Shown piece by piece: positions 1,731 through 16,489 of a stretch of 64,000 bases of DNA. Numbering within the stretch: the first letter of the stretch is position 1; the number at the start of each line of letters is the position of its first letter. The notes under the pieces are model-generated. The model had not been told where the DNA came from and made no database searches. It saw nothing but the letters and a program-made list of their open reading frames with translations. The position numbers and the translations under genes were made by a program. Origin of the DNA: Candidatus Sysuimicrobium tengchongense (GTDB lineage Bacteria; Sysuimicrobiota; Sysuimicrobiia; Sysuimicrobiales; Sysuimicrobiaceae); the NCBI GenBank assembly GCA_031460175.1, contig JAVKGW010000001.1, positions 403,021-467,020 of the forward strand, read 5' to 3'.

Positions 1731-3182
1731 CTACCGGTTCGTGTCCGCCTCCCGGAGGAGGTCCGCGAGCCGCTCCCGGAGAAGTTCCCAGCACCGGCGC
1801 ACGTGCCGGTGCTCCGTCCGCAGGTGTCCGATGGCCAGCCGGAGCACGAGACGTCCATCCAGCCGGGTATGCGAGAGGTACGCTTCCCCCGTGCGGTTCA
1901 CCGCCTCCAGGAGCTGCTCGTTGAGGGCGTCCAGGGCCTCCTCCGGAACCCCCCGTGGGCGCGCGCGGAAACACACGGTACTGAAGGGCACGGGGGCCAT
2001 CCGTTCGAAGTCTGGATCCTCGTCCACCCACCCCGCGAACTCCCGGGCGAGGGCGATGTGACGACGGACCATCTCCCGCAGCCCTGAAGCGCCGAACATC
2101 CGCAACACCATCCACAGCTTCAGAGCCCGGAACCGCCGACCGAGCTGGATCCCATAGTCCATGAAGTTCACCGCATCCTCCTCCGGGGTGCGGAGGTACT
2201 CGGGCACGAGGCTGAAGGCCCGCCGCAGGACTTCCGGTCGACGGGTGTAGAAGGCGGAGCAGTCAATGGGGACCGTGAGCCACTTGTGGGGGTTCACCAC
2301 GAGGGAATCCGCCCGTTCGCACCCCGCGAGCACGTGCCGCTTCTCGGGGAGGATGGCAGCGACCCCCGCGTAGGCCGCGTCCACGTGCAACCAGATCCCG
2401 TACCGCTCGCAGATCTCCGCGATCTCCGGAACCGGGTCCACGCTGGTGGTGGAGGTGGTCCCCACCGTGGCCACCACGCCCGCGGGCCGCCACCCTGCCC
2501 GCAGGTCCTCCTCGATGGCCTCCGCTAAGGCGTCGGGCCTCATGCGGAACTCCCCGTCCACGGGGATCTTCCGTACGCCTTCCTGCCCGAACCCCAGCAC
2601 GATGGCGCCCTTCTCGATGGAGGAATGGGCGTGCTCGGAGGTGTAAATGCGCAGCCGAGGGAGATCCGGCCTCCCCGCCATGCCCTGTTCCCGGATTCCG
2701 AGGCCAAGGGACTCCCGGGCCGCGGCCATGGCGCACAGGGAAGCGACGGACGCCGTGTCCATGATGATCCCGAACCGGGGCGGAAGTCCCAAGAGCTGCC
2801 GCAGCCAGTCCAGGGTAACCTCCTCCAGCTCCGTGGCCGCGGGGCAGGTGCGCCACAGCATCCCGTTCACGTTCAGGGCCGCACACAGCACCTCCCCCAG
2901 CACGCCGGGCGCGGAGCCCGTGATGGCGAAGTAGGCGAAAAAGCCCGGGTGGTTCCAGTGCGTGATCCCCGGCAGGAGGATTTCCTGGAAGTCTGTGAAG
3001 ATGCGCTCAAAGGGCTCCGGATCCTCCGGGGGGGAGGGGGGAAGCTTCTCCCGGATCTCGCCGGGCCGCACCCGCGCGAGGACCGGGTAGCGCTCGCTGT
3101 GGTCCAGGTAGTCCGCGATCCACCGTCCGAGTCGCTCAAGTCCCTGCAGGAAGAGTTCTCCCTGTGGCCGTATATTGCTCAT
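1731..3182 (-). CDS. Pyridoxal-dependent (group II) amino-acid decarboxylase
   Basis: 483 aa with aromatic-L-amino-acid/glutamate decarboxylase family motifs (HWNHPGFFAYF, the NPHKW PLP-lysine motif). Confidence 0.85.
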   Translation of the reverse strand: MSNIRPQGELFLQGLERLGRWIADYLDHSERYPVLARVRPGEIREKLPPSPPEDPEPFERIFTDFQEILLPGITHWNHPGFFAYFAITGSAPGVLGEVLCAALNVNGMLWRTCPAATELEEVTLDWLRQLLGLPPRFGIIMDTASVASLCAMAAARESLGLGIREQGMAGRPDLPRLRIYTSEHAHSSIEKGAIVLGFGQEGVRKIPVDGEFRMRPDALAEAIEEDLRAGWRPAGVVATVGTTSTTSVDPVPEIAEICERYGIWLHVDAAYAGVAAILPEKRHVLAGCERADSLVVNPHKWLTVPIDCSAFYTRRPEVLRRAFSLVPEYLRTPEEDAVNFMDYGIQLGRRFRALKLWMVLRMFGASGLREMVRRHIALAREFAGWVDEDPDFERMAPVPFSTVCFRARPRGVPEEALDALNEQLLEAVNRTGEAYLSHTRLDGRLVLRLAIGHLRTEHRHVRRCWELLRERLADLLREADTNR

Positions 3183-8872: not shown

Positions 8873-9647
8873 GCGGGAGGACGTGGGTCTGGACGACGCG
8901 GCCGCCCCCGTGCCGGGCGATCCGCTCGCCGAGGGTCCGCACGTGATCCGCCATCCGGTGAGCGGGATATGAGAGGGGCGCAAAGATCACCGCGAGGCAC
9001 CGGCGCGTGCCTTCCGTGATGGCGGTGCGCAAGGAGTCGTTGGTGGGTCCTCCCATGGGGCCCTCCTCGTCCGCCACCACCAGCCGCCCCTCCGCCCGGA
9101 AGGTGCCCTTTCCTAAGGACTCGTAGGCCTCGCCCGGCCCGCCGAGCCGCACGCAGACCTCTCCCCGCACCCGATCCAGGTCGTAGAGCCCGATGGGAAG
9201 GAGGAACTCCAGGGAGCAGAGGTTCACCACGTCCACCAGCAGGTTGATGCGGGGAAGGCCGTCTCCCCGTAGGACGCGACGCAGGAGGGCCTCTGAGGAG
9301 GGCCGGTTCTTCGTGGGATCCTCCCCCAGCAGCCGGTACAGCTCCCGGGCATGCCTCAGGGCCTCGATCTCGCCGGGCGGCCTGCCCGCGTACTTCCCGC
9401 GGAGGGCCTGCTGGAGCCCCATCGCCTCTGCCCAGACCTCCGGGGCCTCCCGGGTCGTCCGGAGGTCTTCCGCGTGCACCACGCCCAGACGGACCCGCTC
9501 CGCGAGCTCTGGGGCGAGCTGGACCTCCACCCTCGCACCTCCGGAACCGGGATGGTCCTCGATCCGCAGCTTGATTTTGCCCCACGTGTCTGGAATGGTG
9601 GAATGGAGCCCACGCGCGGGAGGGTATGCGCTTGACATGACCGCCAC
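8859..9647 (-). CDS. B3/B4 (tRNA-binding-like) domain protein
   Basis: 262 aa with similarity to the PheT B3/4-domain family. The start is uncertain because it overlaps the divergent MBL start by ~11 nt. Confidence 0.55.
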   Translation of the reverse strand: MAVMSSAYPPARGLHSTIPDTWGKIKLRIEDHPGSGGARVEVQLAPELAERVRLGVVHAEDLRTTREAPEVWAEAMGLQQALRGKYAGRPPGEIEALRHARELYRLLGEDPTKNRPSSEALLRRVLRGDGLPRINLLVDVVNLCSLEFLLPIGLYDLDRVRGEVCVRLGGPGEAYESLGKGTFRAEGRLVVADEEGPMGGPTNDSLRTAITEGTRRCLAVIFAPLSYPAHRMADHVRTLGERIARHGGGRVVQTHVLPPTAR

Positions 9648-10641
9648 CTTCGTGGACGAAGACCTGGTGTGGATCCGGATCCCGGTGCCGTTCCCCGTGG
9701 GTACCGTAAACAGCTACCTCGTGCGCACGGCCTCCGGAGCCCTCCTGATCGACGCGGGGATCTGCACCCCTCAGGCCCTGGAGGCGGTGGAGGAGGCTCT
9801 GGACACCGCGGGGGTCCCGCCGGAGGCCCTCCGGGCCATCGTGCTCACGCACGCGCACCCCGACCACATCGGCCTCGCGGGGCACATCCAGCAGCGGACG
9901 GGAGCCCCCATCTTCCTCTCGCGGAAGGAAGCCGAGACCGCGCGGAGGGTGTGGATGGGTCCCCTGGAGGAACGGCTCAGGACCGTGGCGGAGCTGTACG
10001 CGGCCCACGGCATGCCCGAAGCCCTCATCCAGGAAGTGGTGCAGCGATCCCGAAGGGTTGCCGCACTGGTGGCCCCCTTCCAGGAGGTGCGCGCGCTCGG
10101 CGAAGGCGAGGACTTCGCCCTGGACGGGTTCTCGGCGCGCGTGTACAGCGTCCCGGGACACAGCGACGGACACATCGTCCTCCTGGATCCCCGGGGACGG
10201 ATGTTCTGCGGGGACCATGTGCTCCCCACCATCTCCCCCAACATCGCCCTGTACCCGGGCGCGAGCGAAAACCCCCTCCGGGACTACCTGGCCTCCCTGC
10301 GTAGGGTTCGAGACCTGCCGGTTCGCCTCGCCCTGCCGGGCCACGGGGACCCCTTCGCGGACTGGACCGGCCGCGTGGACTGGCTGCTGGATCACCACGC
10401 CCACCGCCTTGAGGCTATCCTGCGCGCGCTTCCCCGGGCGGGTGCGGCTGCCTACGAAGTGGCGCAGGAGATTTTCGGACCTGATCTCCGGCAGGAGGAA
10501 GCGGCCTTCGCCCTTGCGGAAACCCTGGCACACCTGGAGTGGCTCCGGGCGGAAGGGTACGTGGCCCGCACCGCAAACCACCGGATTCGATACCGACCCT
10601 TGCGGGAATCCGTGGGAATCCGTTTCCGTCCGGAAGAATGA
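9637..10641 (+). CDS. MBL-fold metallo-hydrolase
   Basis: THAHPDHIG metal-binding motif and SVPGHSDGH. The ORF-track frame 9193..10641 carries 148 aa of implausible basic leader, so I start at ATG 9637 (MTATFVDEDLVWIRIPVPFPVGTVNSYLV). Confidence 0.75.
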   Translation: MTATFVDEDLVWIRIPVPFPVGTVNSYLVRTASGALLIDAGICTPQALEAVEEALDTAGVPPEALRAIVLTHAHPDHIGLAGHIQQRTGAPIFLSRKEAETARRVWMGPLEERLRTVAELYAAHGMPEALIQEVVQRSRRVAALVAPFQEVRALGEGEDFALDGFSARVYSVPGHSDGHIVLLDPRGRMFCGDHVLPTISPNIALYPGASENPLRDYLASLRRVRDLPVRLALPGHGDPFADWTGRVDWLLDHHAHRLEAILRALPRAGAAAYEVAQEIFGPDLRQEEAAFALAETLAHLEWLRAEGYVARTANHRIRYRPLRESVGIRFRPEE

Positions 10642-10659
10642 AGAATAAGGAGGGGATGC

Positions 10660-11589
10660 ATGCCGAGGACGCAGGTGGTGGAGAGGGGCGTCGTGCTCCT
10701 GGACCTGGAGCTGGGCGGCACGCCCCAGGTGCTCGGCGCCTATCTCCTCCTGGACGGGGAGCCCGCCCTGGTGGAGGTCGGGCCATCCTCGTGTCTAGGA
10801 GCCCTTGAGGCGGGGCTCGCGGAGCACGGGCTGGCGGTCTCCGACCTCCGGGCCGTGGTGGTCACCCACATCCATCTCGACCACGCGGGGGCCGCGGGCG
10901 TCCTCGCCCGCCGCAACCCCCATCTCCGCGTCTACGTGCACCCCGTGGGCGCTCCGCATCTCGCCCATCCCGAGCGCCTGGTGCGCAGCGCGCACCGCCT
11001 GTACGGGGACCTCCTGGAGGCGCTTTGGGGGGAGGTGGCCCCGGTGCCTCCGGACCGCATCGTGGCGGTGCAGGACGGGGAACGTATCCGGGTGGGAGGT
11101 CGCATGCTCCGGGTCCTGAACACCCCCGGCCACGCCAACCACCACCACGTGTTCCTGGACGAGCGGACCGGGCTGATGTTCACGGGGGACGCGGCGGGTG
11201 TCTGCCTGCCGGGATGCTCCGTGGTGCGGCCACCCACGCCCCCACCGGAGCTGGACCTGGAGGTCTGGGATCGCACCCTGGACCGCATGCGGGAGATCGC
11301 GCCCCGGTGCCTGGCCCTCACCCACTTCGGCGTGCGGGACGATCCGGAGACGGTGCTCGAGGAGATGCGCCGGCGGCTGCGGGAGATGGCGGAGGTGCTG
11401 CGGCCCGGATGGGAGGCGGGGGAGGATGTAGAGCGGCTCACGGAGCGGCTCCGACGCTACCTGGACCCGGAGATCGAGGCCCGGTGTGGAGCCCAGACCG
11501 CGGCCCGACAGGAGACGGCCGCGAGCTACCGGCTCAACGTCCTGGGCTTTGTCCGCTATTTCGAGAAGACCCGATCGGCTTCCGGGTAA
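10660..11589 (+). CDS. MBL-fold metallo-hydrolase (second, tandem)
   Basis: THIHLDHAG, NTPGHANHH and the C-terminal helical domain are all paralogous to the upstream gene. Confidence 0.75.
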   Translation: MPRTQVVERGVVLLDLELGGTPQVLGAYLLLDGEPALVEVGPSSCLGALEAGLAEHGLAVSDLRAVVVTHIHLDHAGAAGVLARRNPHLRVYVHPVGAPHLAHPERLVRSAHRLYGDLLEALWGEVAPVPPDRIVAVQDGERIRVGGRMLRVLNTPGHANHHHVFLDERTGLMFTGDAAGVCLPGCSVVRPPTPPPELDLEVWDRTLDRMREIAPRCLALTHFGVRDDPETVLEEMRRRLREMAEVLRPGWEAGEDVERLTERLRRYLDPEIEARCGAQTAARQETAASYRLNVLGFVRYFEKTRSASG

Positions 11590-12868: not shown

Positions 12869-13899
12869 TCAGTACAGTTCCCGCCGGAGGCGGTCCGCGA
12901 GGATCCATCGATCCCCGGCCCGCCGGACCATTCCCATGCGCTCGAACCTCCCCAGCCACCTGTTCACGCTCTCCCGGGTGGCCCCGATGAGGTGGGCGAG
13001 TTCCGTCTGGGAGAGCCGGGGGCAGAGCACGGTACCGTCATCTTGCCGCTCTCCCTGCTCGACCCCTAGCCGGAGCAGGATCCGCACCAGGCGCCCCCGC
13101 ACGTCGAGGAACGCGGCGTCGCGCACCTGCAGGTCGGCAGCCTGAAGCCGCTGGCCCAGCAGGTGGATCAAGCGCAGGGCGACCTCGGGTCGCTGCCGGA
13201 GCCAGCCGACCAGATCCTCGCGGGCTACGAACAGCACCACGCAGTCGTCCTGCGCCACGCCGTCCGCCGAGCGCACTCCGCCATCGAGCACGGGGACTTC
13301 TCCCACGACCTCGCCCGGGCCCAGCAAGGCCAGGGTCCGCTCCCTTCCGTCCGTGGAGGTGAAGCCCACCCTCACCCGTCCCCGCTCCACGAGGTAGACG
13401 CCGGTGGCGGGGTCGCCCTCCCGGAAGATCACCTCGCCCCGGTGGTACAGCCGCCGCCGCACCGCGCCCGCCAAGGGGGCCAGTTCCGCTGCGGTATACC
13501 CGGCGAACAGCGGCAGGCGCGCCAGCTCGGGCTCCCCGGCCGTACCGGGCGGGGCGGCCTTGACCGGTCCCGCCTCGTGCGGCTCCTGCTGGTGCGCGTT
13601 CTGCAGCCCGAAGACCGCCAGCATCCCCTCCCCCAGGAGGTTTGACACCGGGACGCCGCACCGTTCCACGACCCGACGCGCGAGGTCGTAGAACTGCCCC
13701 AGGAGCCCGCGCCCGTCTTCCGGCTCACCGGCGGCCTTGCCGGTGTTGCGGTCGGCGAGCACCACGGTGACCACGCTGTGACTGGAGGCGGACGTCCCGG
13801 CCAGCGTCCGGGCGGTCCCGCAGTAGGGACAGAACTTCGCGCCGGCGGGAACCAGCAGCCGCTGACAGGTCAGGCAGACCCTCGCCTTCCTCCTCATCC
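12869..13899 (-). CDS. CRP/FNR-family regulator with N-terminal zinc ribbon + truncated nucleotidyl-cyclase-like segment
   Basis: Start taken at the internal ATG (MRRKARVCLTCQ...). The domains are CxxC...CPYC, then VTVVLADRNTG...GEGMLAVFG (resembling class III cyclase beta1..beta3), then a cNMP-binding beta-barrel and a C-terminal CRP HTH (RLSQTELAHLIGATRESVNRWL). Confidence 0.75.
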
Positions 13900-13987
13900 C
13901 CACCCCCGGATGGTCCGCCCGCACCATCCATCTGATGCAAGCGTACCACGAAGGCGGGCCGGTGTCAGCGCGGCCCCGCCGGCTCCC

Positions 13988-14003
13988 TGTGACGCAGTTC
14001 ACC
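13988..14003. promoter_or_regulatory. CRP/FNR-type box TGTGA-N6-TCACc
   Basis: tgtgacgcagttcacc lies in the 189-bp divergent intergenic region between the CRP-family gene (minus) and the ABM gene (plus). Confidence 0.4.
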
Positions 14004-14088
14004 TCGCCGCGGTGGCCTGGCTCACTGCAGCCCGCGCGAGCACCCGCTACCGTGATCTGCGACGCTTCGTTCCAGGAGGAAGACACAC

Positions 14089-15973: not shown

Positions 15974-16489
15974 ATGGACCAATCGCAGACGGCAGCCACG
16001 TTCCACTGGGCAACGCCACTCGGGGTGAGTGTGATTTGCTTTCTGGTGTCGGGAGTTGTCCATCTCTTGATCGGGATCCTCACGCCGATCTTCGTCAACT
16101 CACAATTCGGACGTAGCGCCATCTTCATCTCGCAGCGAACCGACAGCCAGCTCTTCCGGGCAGCGCCATCCGACCTGCTCGACAGGAACAAGGAGCTGGC
16201 GACGTTCCGCACGCTCTTCTTGACCAACGCGGGCGGGTCCCTGGTCATCATTGGCCTCTTCATCGTGTCCCTCGCATGGTTCGGCCTTCGCCAGCACCAG
16301 GTGTGGGCGTTCGTAACCCTCGTTCTGGCGGGACTGGTCGTTCTCCCCTACTGGTTTCTCGTTTTCAAGCCCTACCTGAACGCGGGCATCTCCATTCGGT
16401 TCGCCGACCTTCCGCCGATCTTTTGGATACCAACTCTCGTCCTGCTCCCGGGGATCATCTTCGGTTGGCTCGGCCTGCGCTCCTCTTGA
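15974..16489 (+). CDS. Hypothetical 4-TM membrane protein
   Basis: 171 aa with an AAAGGAGCC Shine-Dalgarno and atypically low GC. Confidence 0.5.
   Translation: MDQSQTAATFHWATPLGVSVICFLVSGVVHLLIGILTPIFVNSQFGRSAIFISQRTDSQLFRAAPSDLLDRNKELATFRTLFLTNAGGSLVIIGLFIVSLAWFGLRQHQVWAFVTLVLAGLVVLPYWFLVFKPYLNAGISIRFADLPPIFWIPTLVLLPGIIFGWLGLRSS

Follow-up and report, generated by a model that had tools for sequence, protein, structure and literature searches.

An in-frame deletion that probably fused a CRP-family regulator to the stump of a zinc-ribbon class III cyclase in an uncultured bacterial group

The window analysed here is a stretch of 64,000 nucleotides (nts) from Candidatus Sysuimicrobium tengchongense (contig JAVKGW010000001.1, positions 403,021 to 467,020), which carries on its minus strand, at 12869..13897, a gene of 342 codons plus stop encoding a zinc ribbon, the stump of a class III nucleotidyl cyclase domain, a linker and a complete regulator of the CRP family. 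We consider it probable, at about 0.8, that in this gene an in-frame deletion has attached the remnant of a former upstream neighbour to the 5′ end of the coding sequence of a CRP-family transcription factor. The ancestral state would have been a two-gene unit, in which a gene of about 654 codons for a protein with a zinc ribbon, a class III cyclase-homology domain and an AAA_16 ATPase of the STAND type ended 3 nts before a crp gene of 226 codons. An in-frame deletion of about 1.6 kb would then have joined cyclase codon ~112-117 to crp codon ~4-6, with the loss of over half the cyclase domain, the entire ATPase, the stop codon behind it and the start codon of crp. Hence the CRP would now be made from the promoter region, leader and start codon of the cyclase gene and would have gained an N-terminal extension of 124 residues. 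The product is predicted to be a dimeric CRP that binds a cyclic nucleotide through an intact Gly-Glu ... Arg-Ser-Ala cassette and, through an R-E-x-x-x-R helix, a TGTGA-N6-TCAC box in the divergent intergenic region, from which it would regulate the divergent gene cluster, its own gene, or both. The zinc ribbon and the beta-alpha-beta-beta stump may be kept as an accessory, non-catalytic module, for example as a contact or stabilising element.

Origin of the N-terminal extension

The intact two-gene unit is preserved in two related loci on Armatimonadota-like metagenome contigs. In L010 (JGI 3300043543), a cyclase/AAA_16 gene lies directly upstream of a 226-codon crp gene (P0006), in the same orientation, and stops 3 nts before it. 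Translated from the GTG at L010:3033, the upstream protein has 654 residues, with Zn_Ribbon_1 at residues 2-22, Guanylate_cyc at 40-208 (profile positions 7-173) and AAA_16 at 233-421. L016 (Logan SRR11728137) has the same layout, with a 653-residue protein that is 80% identical to that of L010. Both loci share the synteny of the window, with a divergent gene of 90 codons and genes of the BBE, SnoaL, DUF6036, MBL (two copies), B3_4 and AA_permease families in their flanks. In a tblastn comparison, residues 7-117 of the window protein matched L010 3033-3383 (E 1e-23, 41% identity) and residues 120-342 matched L010 5016-5678 (E 5e-81, ~59% identity), and a Pro/Gly/Ala-rich junction linker (residues ~113-124; 13526..13561, minus strand) lies over the deletion joint between the two segments. 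The window gene thus corresponds to the first ~117 codons of the cyclase gene followed by crp from about its fifth codon, which points to an in-frame deletion of ~1.6 kb. A −10-like block, GTGGTA(C/G)GCTTGC, is common to fused and unfused loci, which suggests that the fused gene inherited the upstream region of the cyclase gene. An earlier note on this DNA had proposed a recombination between cyclase and receptor domains, which the two-gene state of L010 and L016, collinear with the window protein, confirms and makes specific.

The descent of the extension was also recovered without reference to synteny. An exhaustive phmmer search with residues 1-125 against 1.84 billion cluster representatives gave 1535 matches at E ≤ 1e-3, the best outside its own cluster at 8e-15, and query residues ~8-110 paired with residues ~3-107 of nearly all of them. 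The Pfam architecture was read for 20 of these matches and was the same in every case, a zinc ribbon (~3-26) followed by a complete Guanylate_cyc domain (profile ~4-175 of 183), most of them continuing into AAA_16 and some into TPR repeats. Collinearity in the alignment extends from the first CxxC to ‘AVFG(L/V)xxAHxx(E/D)Pxxx’, at 32-44% identity to zinc-ribbon cyclases. With the zinc ribbon removed, residues 38-112 alone still gave E 2e-9 to 1e-5, scaled to the whole library. A search of the PDB with a profile of four fusion orthologues lacking the zinc ribbon placed the cyclase 2W01 at the top, aligned end to end, and at E 0.019 this match is only corroborative. Pfam hmmscan did not report Guanylate_cyc (PF00211) even at E ≤ 10, nor did NCBIfam, whether with the full protein or with residues 1-110, and a word-indexed homologue search with residues 1-125 was empty to the point of missing even the identical database protein, a limit of the sensitivity of that tool. 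The profile check that the earlier note had proposed for residues 45-105 therefore failed in its Pfam form, but the exhaustive search found the homology, so that the Pfam result is a false negative; the resemblance to the first strands of class III cyclases, behind a zinc ribbon, that had been noticed by eye holds. From these alignments, residues 7 to ~115 are judged to share descent with zinc-ribbon class III cyclases, and the donor family to be specifically the zinc-ribbon cyclases with a STAND ATPase.

The C4 zinc ribbon recognised in the earlier note occupies residues 4-30 (13808..13888, minus strand). Its cysteines 8, 11, 23 and 26 (CxxC-(N11)-CxxC) do not vary among the four fusion orthologues or in the alignment of the cyclase family. 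The Pfam zinc-ribbon profiles (DZR/Zn_Ribbon_1; PF13240 / PF12773) score 19.7-22.4 bits at residues 4-30, below their cut-offs of 25-27.3, while the homologous ribbons of the donor family exceed the Pfam threshold. The cyclase stump follows at residues ~41-112 (13562..13777, minus strand). It retains beta1 and alpha1, then the hairpin of beta2 and beta3 and the opening turn of the following helix, and corresponds to positions ~4-80 of the 183 in the Guanylate_cyc profile, or ~42% of the domain. Relative to the zinc-ribbon cyclase family, 3 residues are deleted in the beta1-alpha1 loop. The first metal-binding Asp site reads AD in three of the four orthologues and VG in L005; the second reads GEG in the window and L001, GKG in L005, and is deleted (G--) in L002. 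The C-terminal half of the domain, with the transition-state Asn and Arg and the substrate-specifying residues, is absent. With positions ~4-80 of 183 all that is left of the domain, the stump cannot be a cyclase and has no capacity for catalysis; the presumption that the remnant is inactive is borne out by this truncation and by metal sites that are not conserved among orthologues.

The intact genes of the two-gene loci (L010:3033-4997 and L016:2036-3997) merit a comment of their own. The L010 gene had been called from a TTG at 3177, too late, and the upstream in-frame GTG at 3033 gives the zinc ribbon back. Its product partially matches TIGR03903, the cyclase/ATPase portion of the ‘TOMM system kinase/cyclase fusion protein’. 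In this protein, ‘SEGVTTAAHLQ’ aligns with ‘GAQVNLTYRIE’ of Cya2 (2W01), so that Thr and His occupy the sites of the transition-state Asn and Arg, and ‘VANFLGD’ stands where most family members show ‘VEKFIGD’. The intact upstream cyclase domain of L010 and L016 may hence itself be a pseudo-cyclase.

The minus-strand open reading frame ends with a stop codon at 12869..12871 and, at its longest, opens at a GTG at 14086 to give 405 residues. Orthologues favour the ATG at 13897..13895 as the start: P0001 (NCBI MDR7414889.1 and three others), 100% identical to the window protein, begins there, and two orthologues, P0002 (72% identity) and P0003 (62%), as well as the re-extended L005 protein, share this start in the alignment. 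An ATG or GTG at codon 1 and a preceding G-rich stretch are conserved among orthologues. The protein is hence of 342 residues and not 343 as first noted, and the span to 14088 originally given for the gene covers the maximal reading frame and not just the gene, whose start codon is at 13897. The record MDR7414889.1 is annotated as ‘cyclic nucleotide-binding domain-containing protein [Armatimonadota bacterium]’, with the extension unrecognised. Gene calls in relatives vary: P0004 in L005 was called from 5001, too late, and an in-frame GTG at L005:4875 gives its zinc ribbon back, while members of the P0005 cluster are annotated at 205 to 288 residues.

Related loci show four states. Mapping of relatives, as had been proposed, found the zinc ribbon, stump and CRP together in four lineages (the window, L001, L002-4 and L005-7), and the same fusion occurs on >30 contigs from NCBI, ENA, JGI and Logan assemblies. 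In L008/L009 (P0005), only the leader and first codons (‘GGGGTCTGC’, encoding G-V-C) are followed by a short, unrelated-looking stretch before crp; L011/L012 (P0009) and L017/L018 (P0008) have no cyclase gene; and L010 and L016 retain the intact unit. In their CRP parts, members of the fusion group are 69-72% identical to one another; identity falls to 63-66% against P0005 and to 53-61% against the unfused P0006/P0007. These values fit one fusion event in the ancestor of the fusion group. The P0005 state would be either a secondary loss or an independent, larger deletion. L008:4990-5215 keeps the conserved leader and first zinc-ribbon codons, and ~290 nts, the rest of the ribbon and the stump, are missing. 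A search of the GTDB representative genomes yielded unrelated zinc ribbons only and no close relative; within the 64-kb window, no cyclase or CRP paralogue was found.

The CRP part and its candidate operator

Downstream of the linker, the protein is a complete CRP. Residues 150-235 (13193..13450, minus strand) form a cyclic nucleoside monophosphate-binding beta-barrel (Pfam PF00027, 86 bits against a cut-off of 27.5, E 1.7e-24) and residues 269-337 (12887..13093, minus strand) a CRP-type winged helix-turn-helix (PF13545, 51.9 bits against 27, E 7e-14; PF00325, 34.4 bits against 21, E 1.8e-8). The AlphaFold2 model shows the barrel, a long C-helix and the helix-turn-helix, with a predicted local distance difference test score (pLDDT) >90 for residues ~130-340. 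The complete nucleotide-binding and DNA-binding domains described in the earlier note are thus confirmed, both scoring above threshold in Pfam, and the model superposes on the CRP of Mycobacterium tuberculosis (MtbCRP) and on GlxR. A phosphate-binding cassette, G199-E200 ... R209-S210-A211 in GEVPVLDGGVRSA, was identified by alignment to MtbCRP (compare G71, E72, R82 and S83 of E. coli CRP); in the L005 orthologue, His replaces the cassette Arg. As read from the sequence, the recognition helix R308-E309-S-V-N-R313 (TRESVNR) follows the R-E-x-x-x-R pattern of R180, E181 and R185 of E. coli CRP. The cut-off of the NCBIfam equivalog model for the global CRP of E. coli type, NF008732, was not reached (81.5 bits against 266 bits), and the protein belongs to the family without being an orthologue of E. 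coli CRP.

The divergent intergenic region contains a CRP box, TGTGACGCAGTTCACC (13988..14003, no strand assigned), which matches TGTGA-N6-TCACA at 9/10 positions. In a scan of the 64-kb window allowing ≤1 mismatch to this consensus, it was the sole match, where ~0.57 would be expected per 64 kb and ~0.002 in the 191-bp intergenic region; the core GTGA-N6-TCAC is likewise unique in the window. The core of TGTGACGCAGTTCACC is found upstream of crp, at the same place, in L001, L002-4, L005-7, L008/9 and L011/12, and the left half of the box is degenerate in L010 (TATGA), L016 (TATGG) and L017. The near-consensus site noted earlier is hence conserved in related loci and is a well-supported candidate for a CRP operator, through which autoregulation is plausible. 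A second, weaker CRP-like site, GGTGGCCTGGCTCACT (14011..14026, no strand assigned; core GTGG-N6-TCAC), may lie 23 bp from the first, centre to centre. Its counterpart is a perfect GTGA-N6-TCAC in L002-4 (L002:4843-4856) and is poor in L005. Taking TACCGT (14048..14053) as a −10 element, this second site would be centred near −41.5 of the divergent promoter, a placement which is speculative.

On the crp side, a promoter-like element (CTGACA, 17 nts, TGgTACGCT; 13940..13968, minus strand) is suggested by its conservation in all fusion orthologues, its −10-like part GTGGTA(C/G)GCTTGC being also present in L008, L010 and L016. The minus-strand leader between the −10-like element and the start codon (13898..13945) is highly conserved among fusion orthologues and can form a hairpin, followed by the G-rich stretch. 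A structural role of this hairpin was considered and set aside, as RNAalifold predicts a structure with essentially no covariation. Class I activation of the gene's own promoter, with the box centred near −61.5 of a predicted transcription start in the window, was also rejected as a conserved feature, given the variable spacing of the box from the promoter-like element and a failed consensus scan, both detailed below. On the side of the divergent gene, the spacing from the box to a conserved block is fixed in the window, L001 and L002. Additional GTGA-N6-TCAC cores were seen in the divergent cluster at L005:3245-3258 (~84 nts upstream of a SnoaL-like gene) and at L008:2411-2424, and may be further operators of the same regulator.

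Constraint on the extension and competing explanations

Constraint was assessed in the four fusion lineages by the ratio of nonsynonymous to synonymous proportions of differences (pN/pS), from Nei-Gojobori counts and one-sided Fisher tests in four comparisons. A single MAFFT alignment of full-length CRPs with cyclase N-terminal fragments was dropped, the fragments being smeared over the whole protein, and separate alignments were used. The GC content at third codon positions (GC3) is 0.84-0.90, which depresses pS and makes the ratios conservative. For residues 1-98, pN/pS was 0.49-0.62, with p 0.001-0.014 in all four comparisons; for the poorly conserved junction linker it was 0.63-1.39, not significantly below 1, and for the CRP part 0.37-0.54. 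The first 124 codons of the four orthologues contain no stop, and the lengths of all their indels are divisible by three. The cysteines and a conserved core, L(L/V)xxFYxLxRxVVERCGVxxSxLL..G(M/V)LAVF, are kept across lineages in which pS is ~0.35-0.46. By these counts, the extension is judged to be translated and to be under moderate purifying selection.

Several observations weigh against parts of the proposal that a deletion created a working regulator with an accessory N-terminal module. Modelled alone with AlphaFold2, the N-terminus has a mean pLDDT of 66, confident only at the zinc knuckles (79-90) and in helix 61-79, with values of 46-58 for residues 31-60 and of 46-52 for residues 91-110. 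In the full-length model, residues 1-120 are at 35-70 and the stump in particular at 37-70, against >90 for the CRP part, and the linker is below 50. Because of this low pLDDT, a defined fold of the stump is unsupported, and a confidently predicted autonomous fold of the extension is not supported by the models. The drifting catalytic Asp positions and the deletion of the module in L008 fit a decaying relic, and loss of the module in a sister lineage implies that it is dispensable. In the CRP part, Ala254 and Asp255 (as read from the sequence in the F-L-D-V register that E. coli CRP shares) stand at the positions of T127 and S128, which contact adenine in the C-helix of E. coli CRP; the ligand hence need not be cAMP. 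In the regulatory region, a sigma-70 consensus scan finds no promoter, the promoter-like element itself failing the scan, and the distance from the box to this element is 19, 33, 45 and 40 nts in the four fusion orthologues, not in helical phase. This makes it doubtful that autoregulation acts directly from a fixed position.

The strongest of the competing explanations holds that the 124 N-terminal residues are a functionless relic of a deletion that was in frame by chance, slowly being lost from a protein that works as a plain CRP of 226 residues. In addition to the absence of a confident fold and the unconserved metal-binding positions, it draws on the lower identity to L010 of the stump (41%) than of the CRP part (~59%), on the higher pN/pS of the extension than of the CRP part, and on the relatives, in which L008/L009 are down to the leader and first codons and nothing is left in L011 and L017. 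Although a GC3 of ~0.9 depresses pS, a ratio significantly below 1 in residues 1-98 in all four comparisons and not in the adjacent linker argues against it, as do the persistence of four cysteines and of the core FYxLxRxVVERCGV...LLxxGxLAVF at a pS of ~0.35-0.46 and the lack of any frameshift or stop in four lineages. We regard a pure relic as possible but on balance unlikely. Translation might instead begin further downstream, for example at Met92 or at a codon of the linker, in which case ribbon and stump would be an untranslated leader, the pseudogenised 5′ end of the cyclase gene. GGGGGAGGGG immediately precedes the Met92 ATG, and gene callers placed the starts of P0004 and of P0005 cluster members further downstream; yet this Shine-Dalgarno-like sequence is only 2 nts from the ATG and is missing in L002, the frame is open and collinear in four lineages with all indels multiples of three, pN/pS is below 1 in residues 1-98, and conservation is seen at codon 1 (ATG or GTG) and in the G-rich run preceding it. 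A downstream start thus appears very improbable. That the cyclase resemblance arose by chance or composition, or that the reading frame is an assembly chimera, might be suggested by the silence of Pfam and NCBIfam and by the empty word-indexed search, but it is refuted by the E-values in the library of 1.84 billion proteins (8e-15 with the entire N-terminus and 2e-9 with just the stump), by the collinearity of the alignment, zinc ribbon included, by the location of the donor gene in synteny, and by the recurrence of the fusion on independent contigs from four sources.

In the ferredoxin-like fold of cyclases, the beta-alpha-beta-beta unit that has been kept makes up the first half, and a re-use of the stumps as half-domains can be envisaged. 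The two stumps of a CRP dimer, clamped by their zinc ribbons, might pair into a pseudo-complete domain, or a stump might pair with a full-length zinc-ribbon cyclase/STAND paralogue elsewhere in the genome. We hold either arrangement to be distinctly improbable. If true, half-domain pairing would give the CRP a second input or would tie a STAND cyclase physically and directly to its receptor.

Neighbourhood, significance and comparison with known systems

The surroundings of the gene have also changed. The window (14004..14088) lacks a conserved divergent gene of 86-91 codons, ‘M(G/A)RYLIETxHTPEQCLADLD…’ (no Pfam family), which is the neighbour of crp in most related loci (compared: L001, L008, L010, L011, L016 and L017), and an ABM-like gene of 88 codons, the second gene in L001 and L011, adjoins crp in the window. 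Since the divergent gene is gone and the ABM-like gene is now adjacent, the divergent side would also have been remodelled by deletion. Two tandem genes for MBL-fold hydrolases (9589..11589, plus strand) lie near crp in the window and in nearly all related loci (L001, L005, L008, L010, L011 and L012). One of them bears a weak resemblance to Apyc1, a cyclic-nucleotide phosphodiesterase (17.9 bits against a 50-bit cut-off), and NCBIfam gives only a generic MBL assignment; a role of these genes in the degradation of cyclic nucleotides is a guess. In the P0003 contigs, the neighbouring uvrB gene (L002:10026-11038; also in L003 and L004) has a product of 1248 residues with intein-splicing and LAGLIDADG domains, and UvrB there thus contains an intein. 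The 95-residue product of L002:4355-4642 is 92.5% identical to the C-terminal part of a 171-residue membrane protein of the window (15974..16489, plus strand), and the L002 gene is probably truncated or mis-called.

The significance of the locus lies in the preservation of the states both before and after the event, in which a deletion internal to an operon appears to have created a new multi-domain regulator. In this uncultured Armatimonadota group, a gene of the cyclase family and the gene of its putative receptor would have formed an operon that is being dismantled stepwise, from intact to fused, to a small relic and to absent. If the stump gained a role, this would be a case of half-domain re-use; if not, it would be a dated case of an in-frame relic persisting under constraint. 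Unless a role for the half-domain emerges, no new mechanism is indicated. For annotation, the lesson is that N-terminal extensions negative in Pfam can be fusion scars, seen only by exhaustive search combined with synteny. A literature search found no paper on a CRP with a zinc-ribbon or cyclase extension.

Among characterised proteins, MtbCRP (Rv3676; 3I54, 3MZH, 4A2U) and GlxR of Corynebacterium glutamicum (3R6S) are the closest counterparts of the CRP part. Residues 125-338 align with them end to end (E 1e-34 to MtbCRP), and in Foldseek the AlphaFold2 model superposes on both, including the MtbCRP-DNA complex 3MZH, with a TM-score on the target of 0.90-0.92 and a root-mean-square deviation of 1.8 Å. 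Shared features are a phosphate-binding cassette (G-E ... R-S-A), a long helix for dimerisation and a recognition helix of the R-E-x-x-x-R pattern, but MtbCRP and GlxR lack the 124-residue extension and the identity is only ~31%. Their target is the TGTGA-N6-TCAC palindrome, as is the candidate target here, and functionally the window protein groups with the actinobacterial CRP/GlxR type within the CRP family of regulators.

The extension finds its counterpart in the family of proteins with a zinc ribbon, a class III cyclase and AAA_16 (STAND), with or without TPR repeats, to which the first ~115 residues of the window protein are collinear and of which the donors in L010 and L016 are members. 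This family spans the part of TIGR03903 that holds the cyclase and ATPase. Unlike this family, the window protein has neither AAA_16 nor C-terminal repeats, and the second Asp is replaced by Glu or Lys, or is absent, in the fusion orthologues. The cyclase-ATPase-helix-turn-helix proteins Rv0386, Rv1358 and Rv2488c of M. tuberculosis are of related build. The operon of L010 and L016 is also among the closest systems, with the neighbourhood and upstream −10-like element of the window, a related box and CRPs of 53-61% identity; it differs from the window in having two separate genes, a complete cyclase domain with its ATPase, and a box with a degenerate left half.

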